Source of the DNA: Chlamydiales bacterium
GTDB taxonomy: Bacteria; Chlamydiota; Chlamydiia; Chlamydiales; JBDQID01
Assembly: GCA_047611865.1 (NCBI GenBank)
Contig: JBLFWS010000001.1
Location: forward strand, 12,408 to 76,407
Direction: 5' to 3'
Length of the DNA stretch: 64,000 nt
Shown one piece after another: positions 62,703 through 62,718 of this stretch. Each line of letters starts with the position of its first letter. Position 1 is the first letter of the stretch. The position numbers and the translations under genes were made by a program. The notes below the pieces were generated by a model. That model made no database searches. It saw nothing but the letters and a program-made list of their open reading frames with translations, and was not told where the DNA came from.

Positions 62703-62718
62703 AGCAAGACTGATGCCA
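62703..62718 (-). promoter_or_regulatory. Sigma-54 (RpoN) -24/-12 promoter upstream of flgB
   Basis: The minus strand reads TTTGGCATCAGTCTTGCTTG, i.e. TGGCAT-N5-TTGCT with exactly 10 nt between GG and GC (consensus TGGCAC-N5-TTGCW). The TTGCT element ends 34 nt upstream of the flgB ATG. Confidence 0.6.

Follow-up and report, generated by a model that had tools for sequence, protein, structure and literature searches.

The stretch of DNA analysed here, referred to below as the window, is 64 kb long and carries three adjacent flagellar genes on its minus strand. The first, flgB (62300..62668), encodes a proximal rod protein of 122 aa that scores 84.2 bits with NCBIfam TIGR01396 (cutoff 59.05) and falls just below threshold with Pfam Flg_bb_rod alone (19.9 versus 20.7). 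The second, flgC (61816..62298; 160 aa), starts 1 nt after the flgB stop and is recognised by Pfam Flg_bb_rod and Flg_bbr_C, while its 94.6 bits with TIGR01395 lie slightly below the cutoff of 102.1. The third, fliE (61442..61801; 119 aa), starts 14 nt after the flgC stop and scores 70.2 bits with Pfam PF02049 and 65 bits with TIGR00205 (cutoff 30). On the same strand, 44 nt after the fliE stop, a terminator-like hairpin with a T-rich tail, CTTAGCCATCTTTATGGCTAGG (61367..61398), was found by pattern match only and is probably the end of the operon. Downstream of fliE there is a gap of 385 nt, and then an unrelated hexapeptide-transferase gene. This gap (61057-61441) is unusually long and AT-rich, and only the terminator-like hairpin and two weak sigma-70-like matches were detected in it. 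A run of nine C residues (61066-61074, minus strand) separates the AGGAG ribosome-binding site of the hexapeptide-repeat transferase gene (61056-60358) from its ATG. As the length of this run is equal in four independent assemblies of the population, it shows no sign of phase variation.

Upstream of flgB, also on the minus strand, lies ung (62814..63518; Pfam UDG), which encodes uracil-DNA glycosylase and whose stop is 95 nt before the putative promoter described below. The ung gene has been called with 249 aa and with 234 aa, a discrepancy like that seen for flgB. Divergent from ung, on the plus strand, is a gene of about 84 aa (63657-63911) without a Pfam or NCBIfam match; a counterpart of 84-85 aa occupies the same place in nearly all chlamydial loci and is absent from one (L078). 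Synteny from tblastn and gene tables showed that ung and flgB are linked in all 11 distinct relatives with a readable upstream gene, with one exception (L006). The block formed by the ~84-aa gene and ung-flgB-flgC-fliE is kept together, whereas the flanking genes are rearranged or inverted. The flgB-flgC-fliE operon is an isolated, conserved unit downstream of ung, among housekeeping genes and with no regulator nearby. Neither the window nor 20-kb neighbourhoods from six relatives showed another flagellar gene, and tblastn with planctomycete and Stutzerimonas flagellar ORFs did not find other flagellar genes in the chlamydial loci. A search against Rfam returned nothing except a tRNA-Pro, with no RNA family at the flgB region. 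The chlamydial lineage that is the most divergent of those sampled has an ORF of 129 aa without a family match, which starts 14 nt after fliE (L012 4838-5227, equivalent to L075 10847-11236) and may be a fourth gene of the operon there.

The FlgC protein shares 78% identity with its counterpart in Chlamydiales bacterium SCGC AG-110-M15. Among the matches listed, some 70 chlamydial FlgC homologues form a tight family, and those of other phyla reach at most 41% identity. The host is one of the flagellated marine chlamydiae of Collingro et al. 2017 (PMC5604735). Elsewhere in the window, four tandem paralogues of ~805-814 aa (10413-20142, minus strand) each contain Glyco_trans_1_2, one of them with a faint sulfotransferase match. 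They adjoin a sugar-nucleotide block of about 12 kb (20244-32923) with epimerases/dehydratases, methyltransferases, transketolase halves, a choline-kinase-like gene, SIS and a CTP-transferase/PfkB fusion, and together the two regions are a large glycan-synthesis island in a chlamydial genome. A respiratory cluster (38099-48811, minus strand) comprises an Fe-S/pyridine-nucleotide oxidoreductase, FixS-like, Rieske, cytochrome b, COX1 and FixO proteins and a 1367-aa multi-domain cytochrome c protein whose domain matches are weak or faint. This cluster is a cbb3-type oxidase with a bc-type complex.

The putative sigma-54 promoter of flgB

Between ung and flgB, the minus strand reads ccttTTGGCATCAGTCTTGCTTGtttcag, and near 62720 it can be divided as cctt-TTGGCATCAGTCTTGCTTG-tttcagaatataaaactgctAGGAGcaagattATG. 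Within this context, TGGCATcagtcTTGCT (62718..62703) ends 34 nt upstream of the flgB ATG (62668-62666). It consists of TGGCAT (62718-62713), a 5-nt spacer (62712-62708) and TTGCT (62707-62703). The GG (62717-62716) and the GC (62705-62704) are exactly 10 nt apart, which is the spacing of sigma-54 promoters. Compared with TGGCAY-N5-TTGCW, TTGGCATcagtcTTGCT has 0 mismatches, and it also conforms to the extended consensus YTGGCAC(G)-N4/5-TTGCW. At its full extent the predicted sigma-54 (-24/-12) promoter, TTGGCATcagtcTTGCTT (62702..62719, minus strand), has TTGGCAT (62719-62713) as its -24 box and TTGCTT (62707-62702) as its -12 box. The element is in sense orientation to flgB, close to the start codon and in non-coding DNA. 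A preliminary description of this DNA had proposed a TGGCAT-N5-TTGCT promoter with the same 10-nt spacing and the same 34 nt to the flgB ATG, and our re-reading of the sequence agrees with it throughout.

In standard sigma-54 geometry, initiation follows 12 nt after the C of the GC in the -12 box, which places the predicted transcription start at about 62692 (62690..62694, minus strand). From such a start, a leader of about 24 nt would follow. The flgB ATG is preceded at a distance of 7 nt by the Shine-Dalgarno sequence AGGAG (62676..62680, minus strand), and GGAG-type sequences are found at the equivalent place in relatives. The preliminary description had likewise called this ATG SD-supported.

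How far the motif alone can carry this reading depends on the size of the sequence searched. The strict pattern TGGCAYNNNNNTTGCW occurs once in the 64-kb window, counting both strands, where 0.10 occurrences are expected, and 10 of 100 shuffled windows contained at least one strict match. A lone site has therefore a probability of about 0.1 of arising anywhere in the window and is weak evidence by itself. The chance is far lower for a site on the correct strand within the ~100 nt upstream of flgB.

Conservation of the element and alternative readings

To compare the element between relatives, we used a FlgC alignment to scan genomes and metagenomes once each, and looked up exact proteins. In 16 distinct chlamydial loci the sequence upstream of flgB could be read; their FlgB proteins are 44-70% identical to that of the window. 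All 16 informative loci carry TTGGCA[CT]-N5-[T/C/A][T/C]GC[A/T]T on the sense strand, at 26-67 nt from the flgB start (median 34), with an identical GG/GC spacing of 10 nt. Wherever ung lies upstream, the motif is downstream of its stop. One further locus without the motif (L041) was set aside as uninformative: its FlgB lacks the first 23 residues, its upstream sequence is unrelated, and it is probably a chimeric or truncated contig of 1.5 kb.

When the 16 loci were anchored on the motif, the five positions of TGGCA and the two of GC each held about 1.9 bits of information. The T, Y, TT, W and T that flank them held 0.9-1.5 bits, and the 5-nt spacer and the sequence to either side of the motif 0-0.2 bits. 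The resulting logo, T-TGGCA-Y...TTGC-W-T, means that the boxes and not the spacer are conserved, across loci with FlgB identities down to 44%. As judged from this alignment, the pattern is what purifying selection leaves when it acts on just the positions contacted by sigma-54, against a saturated neutral background. We scored sites with a position weight matrix (PWM) of the core columns only, as Markov controls reached 25 bits with a matrix that included the spacer columns. The chlamydial flgB sites scored 17.8-23.4 bits with this core matrix, whereas no other position exceeded 12.2 bits on either strand of ~145 kb of related chlamydial DNA and the window; within the window, the flgB element scored 23.2 bits and the next best site 11.5. 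It is the retention of the motif in 16 of 16 informative orthologous loci that makes the site compelling. The preliminary description had regarded the element as a near-consensus sigma-54 promoter and named conservation upstream of flgB in relatives as a check. That reading is borne out by a motif that is present in every informative chlamydial relative while its spacer and flanks are randomised.

Conservation indicates selection but leaves the binding protein unspecified, and the bipartite motif might be the operator of another DNA-binding regulator instead of a sigma-54 promoter. We regard this as very unlikely, as the conserved positions, the 10-nt GG/GC spacing and the extended consensus are all features of sigma-54 sites, and the motif matches a flgB RpoN site that was verified by EMSA (PMC9817140). 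Its halves form neither a palindrome nor a direct repeat, unlike most operators, and the motif, 26-67 nt upstream of the start codon, is placed as a promoter would be. It is extremely unlikely that the element is instead a promoter of the housekeeping sigma-66 (sigma-70-type), in which TTGGCA would serve as the -35 hexamer and CAGAAT, after a gap of 16 nt, as the -10 hexamer. This arrangement (62719..62692, minus strand) matches 9 of the 12 consensus positions, but such a match is weak because the region yields 11 of them where 7.1 are expected. Moreover, the 15 other loci keep no -10-like hexamer 16-18 nt after TTGGCA: the best candidates there match at 1-4 of 6 positions, and few have A2/T6. 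The conserved TTGC[AT]T block would, in a sigma-70-type promoter, fall within the spacer.

The element could also be a functionless chance match, in which case flgB transcripts would come from ung read-through or start at a promoter that was not recognised. One shuffled window in ten does give a strict match, and a pattern scan found no terminator-like site on the minus strand between ung and flgB, so that read-through from ung could add some sigma-54-independent expression. As the sole explanation, chance is nevertheless hardly credible, given a motif at the same place in every informative orthologous locus amid randomised neighbouring bases and the absence of a comparable site from the rest of the >200 kb of chlamydial sequence examined.

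The last alternative concerns the gene model. As the preliminary description had observed, the element lies within the N-terminal extension of a TTG-started ORF of 151 aa (62300..62755), and JGI calls flgB in this form, starting from 62755 and engulfing the promoter, in two loci (L001 and L003), while Logan assemblies give 122 aa. That the motif is simply coding sequence of a 151-aa FlgB is almost certainly wrong despite the open frame, as in most relatives the similarity to FlgB starts with residue 1 of the 122-aa protein, most of them have in-frame stops upstream of flgB or no open extension, ung ends 2 nt before the motif in two relatives, the spacer lacks codon-like conservation, and the ATG at 62668 has a good AGGAG and agrees with calls of 119-124 aa in other assemblies and relatives. 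On this comparison of gene models, the 151-aa form is an over-extension and the 122-aa gene is the real one, which was also the form favoured initially. As the 29-residue extension is spurious, the promoter is non-coding. This corrects the flgB gene model in the public record.

Activation and significance of the operon

Taken together, we consider it highly probable that the element is a functional sigma-54 (RpoN) promoter that drives flgB-flgC-fliE, genes of the proximal rod and the rod adaptor, in a marine chlamydia with a flagellum. What was observed directly is the motif with its geometry, the fact that it is unique in the window, the way it is strictly conserved while the surrounding bases are randomised, and the structure of the operon. 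In the mechanism that we propose, sigma-54 RNA polymerase would bind TTGGCAT (-24) and TTGCTT (-12) in a closed complex that cannot open by itself, and an AAA+ activator would open the complex by ATP hydrolysis. Transcription would then start near 62692, giving the short leader with its AGGAG ribosome-binding site, and the transcript would cover flgB, flgC and fliE and end at the hairpin terminator near 61398-61377. Expression of the rod genes is thereby predicted to need an ATP-dependent activator and thus to be gated by a signal.

Sigma-54 promoters with an enhancer-binding activator might be expected to carry an upstream site for it, and the preliminary description had suggested looking 80-150 nt upstream, including the 3' end of ung. 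Our searches of k-mers, anchored information and synonymous sites did not find such an enhancer. Among k-mers enriched upstream of flgB, nothing was shared beyond a T-run that encodes the conserved GFFG of Ung, and the anchored information between positions -160 and -3 had a maximum of 0.58 bit. In the last 60 codons of ung, four-fold degenerate third positions carried no information, with no excess conservation. Between the end of ung and the promoter there are as few as 2 nt (L008, L049) and as many as 226 nt (L012), which means that an enhancer at a fixed distance would be coding in some genomes and spacer in others. Lineage-specific or degenerate sites would escape detection by these searches. 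A chlamydial enhancer may, however, not be expected at all, as the chlamydial activator CtcC has receiver and ATPase domains and no DNA-binding domain (PMC7482065; PMC3162934). The outcome of the enhancer search is consistent with an activator that needs none, although it does not prove it.

No rpoN, ctcB/ctcC or other sigma-54 activator gene was found in the window, the 12 kb that flank it on the contig or the fetched chlamydial loci. Genes for a dedicated flagellar activator (FlrA/FlrC, FleQ/FleR, FlgR) or a later sigma-28 tier were likewise not seen in the sequence covered. Environmental chlamydiae keep sigma-66 and sigma-54, and sigma-28 is reportedly missing from those without flagella (PMC4652624). 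From what is published on the phylum we infer that sigma-54 and its activator are encoded elsewhere in the genome. A histidine kinase located 3 kb downstream of fliE in L012 was considered as a possible CtcB and rejected, as it is a PAS-HisKA-REC-Hpt hybrid kinase; no Sigma54_activat partner was found beside the hybrid kinase near flgB (L012/L075). We see about an even chance that the activator of the operon is a CtcC-type response regulator without a DNA-binding domain that acts from solution without an enhancer. If CtcC has this role, rod-gene expression would be tied to the CtcB/CtcC signal. Flagellated chlamydiae may also encode an additional, dedicated flagellar activator.

We know of nothing on the timing or mode of flagellar gene expression in chlamydiae, as the flagellated chlamydiae are uncultured. 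Their flagellar genes were reported in 2017 and came as a surprise (Collingro et al., PMC5604735). That paper mentions neither sigma factors nor promoters, and our literature search found no paper that connects sigma-54 with chlamydial flagellar genes. The conserved sigma-54 promoter is a first regulatory handle on the chlamydial flagellum. The wider proposal of the preliminary description, that flagellar genes of chlamydiae belong to their sigma-54 regulon, is supported for the flgB-flgC-fliE operon only. The sharp position weight matrix obtained here can be used for finding the rest of the regulon in flagellated chlamydiae.

The sigma-54 regulon and CtcB-CtcC signal of C. trachomatis accompany conversion to the infectious extracellular form (PMC7482065). 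A sigma-54 promoter of flgB would place part of the chlamydial flagellum under the same sigma factor as late development in pathogenic Chlamydia. Such a link between the flagellum and the sigma factor of late type III secretion and envelope genes bears on the evolution of the developmental regulon. As the C. trachomatis regulon is tied to infectious forms, chlamydial rod genes may be timed with the extracellular stage; by this analogy, one could speculate that rod-gene expression coincides with the formation of the extracellular stage in flagellated chlamydiae.

Comparison with known sigma-54 flagellar systems

A close match to the element itself comes from Vibrio. The RpoN site of V. parahaemolyticus flgB (VP0775) is TTGGCACGCTAATTGCTTT, located 43-61 bp before the ATG, and its binding was demonstrated by EMSA (PMC9817140); it is nearly identical to TTGGCATCAGTCTTGCTTG in the window. 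A perfect site, TGGCATGAGCTTTGCT, also precedes flgB in Stutzerimonas, 59 nt before the aligned FlgB start. Like the chlamydial element, flgB promoters of the Vibrio/Pseudomonas type lie tens of nt before the first gene of a rod operon. There, however, including class III of V. cholerae, flgB heads the long flgBCDEFGHIJKL cluster, whereas the chlamydial operon comprises flgB-flgC-fliE only. The Vibrio/Pseudomonas-type systems also depend on the enhancer-binding FlrC/FleR, which has a DNA-binding domain, whereas no conserved enhancer is detectable here.

The systems of Helicobacter pylori and Campylobacter, in which the middle flagellar genes are sigma-54-dependent, resemble the chlamydial one in that flagellar genes are dispersed in small operons. 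The H. pylori activator FlgR, which has no C-terminal DNA-binding domain, acts on flagellar sigma-54 promoters independently of enhancers (PMC9696931; PMC3162934). FlgR and chlamydial CtcC have a truncated architecture in common, a likeness in domain content. In H. pylori, FlgB, FlgC and FliE are reported to be necessary for activation of the RpoN regulon (PMC9696931), and the tier to which the rod genes belong may therefore differ from that in chlamydiae.

Within the phylum, the late CtcB/CtcC regulon of C. trachomatis shares the sigma factor and the promoter type with the operon described here. Its TGG-N9-TGC consensus has been validated with reporter assays and mutations of the -24 G and the -13 T (PMC7482065), and the chlamydial flgB sites are much nearer to the canonical consensus than this relaxed pattern. 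The C. trachomatis targets are envelope and type III secretion components, and their activator has no DNA-binding domain. Rod genes are missing from C. trachomatis, and flgB-flgC-fliE lies outside any described chlamydial sigma-54 regulon. Hatch and Ouellette observed fewer fliI and flhA transcripts in a multiplexed sigma-factor knockdown and proposed a flagellar-like cascade from sigma-54 to sigma-28 in C. trachomatis (PMC10597470). A sigma-54 flagellar operon in the same phylum would lend comparative support to that proposal.

The Planctomycetota, which also belong to the PVC superphylum, offer a further parallel. Most flgB loci of Phycisphaerae contain TGG[CT]A[CA]-N5-TTGCG ~47-113 nt upstream of where the aligned FlgB begins. 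Their genes are arranged as flgB-flgC-fliE, as in chlamydiae, with fliF and fliG apparently following fliE, as judged by ORF sizes only. In Phycisphaerales ac7 (L019), a gene for an NtrC-type activator of the form REC-Sigma54_activat-HTH_8 (2005-3483), in which HTH_8 is a DNA-binding domain, lies directly upstream of flgB (3518), whereas chlamydiae have ung at this place and no regulator nearby. In two further Phycisphaerales loci (L032, L059), the upstream ORF at 918 resembles a histidine kinase. This suggests that Planctomycetota have a flagellar tier like that of FlgS/FlgR. A tentative reading, which we hold to be possible and on balance doubtful, is that the CtcB-CtcC/sigma-54 switch behind late (RB-to-EB) genes in all chlamydiae is a relic of an ancestral flagellar tier shared with the Planctomycetota, whose original task was kept in the flagellated lineages. 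If so, assembly of the flagellum would be timed with the extracellular infectious stage, and its activation would be enhancer-free, by an activator lacking a DNA-binding domain. Sigma-54 control of the proximal rod operon is widespread and present in a sister phylum, and the chlamydial case joins this known class.
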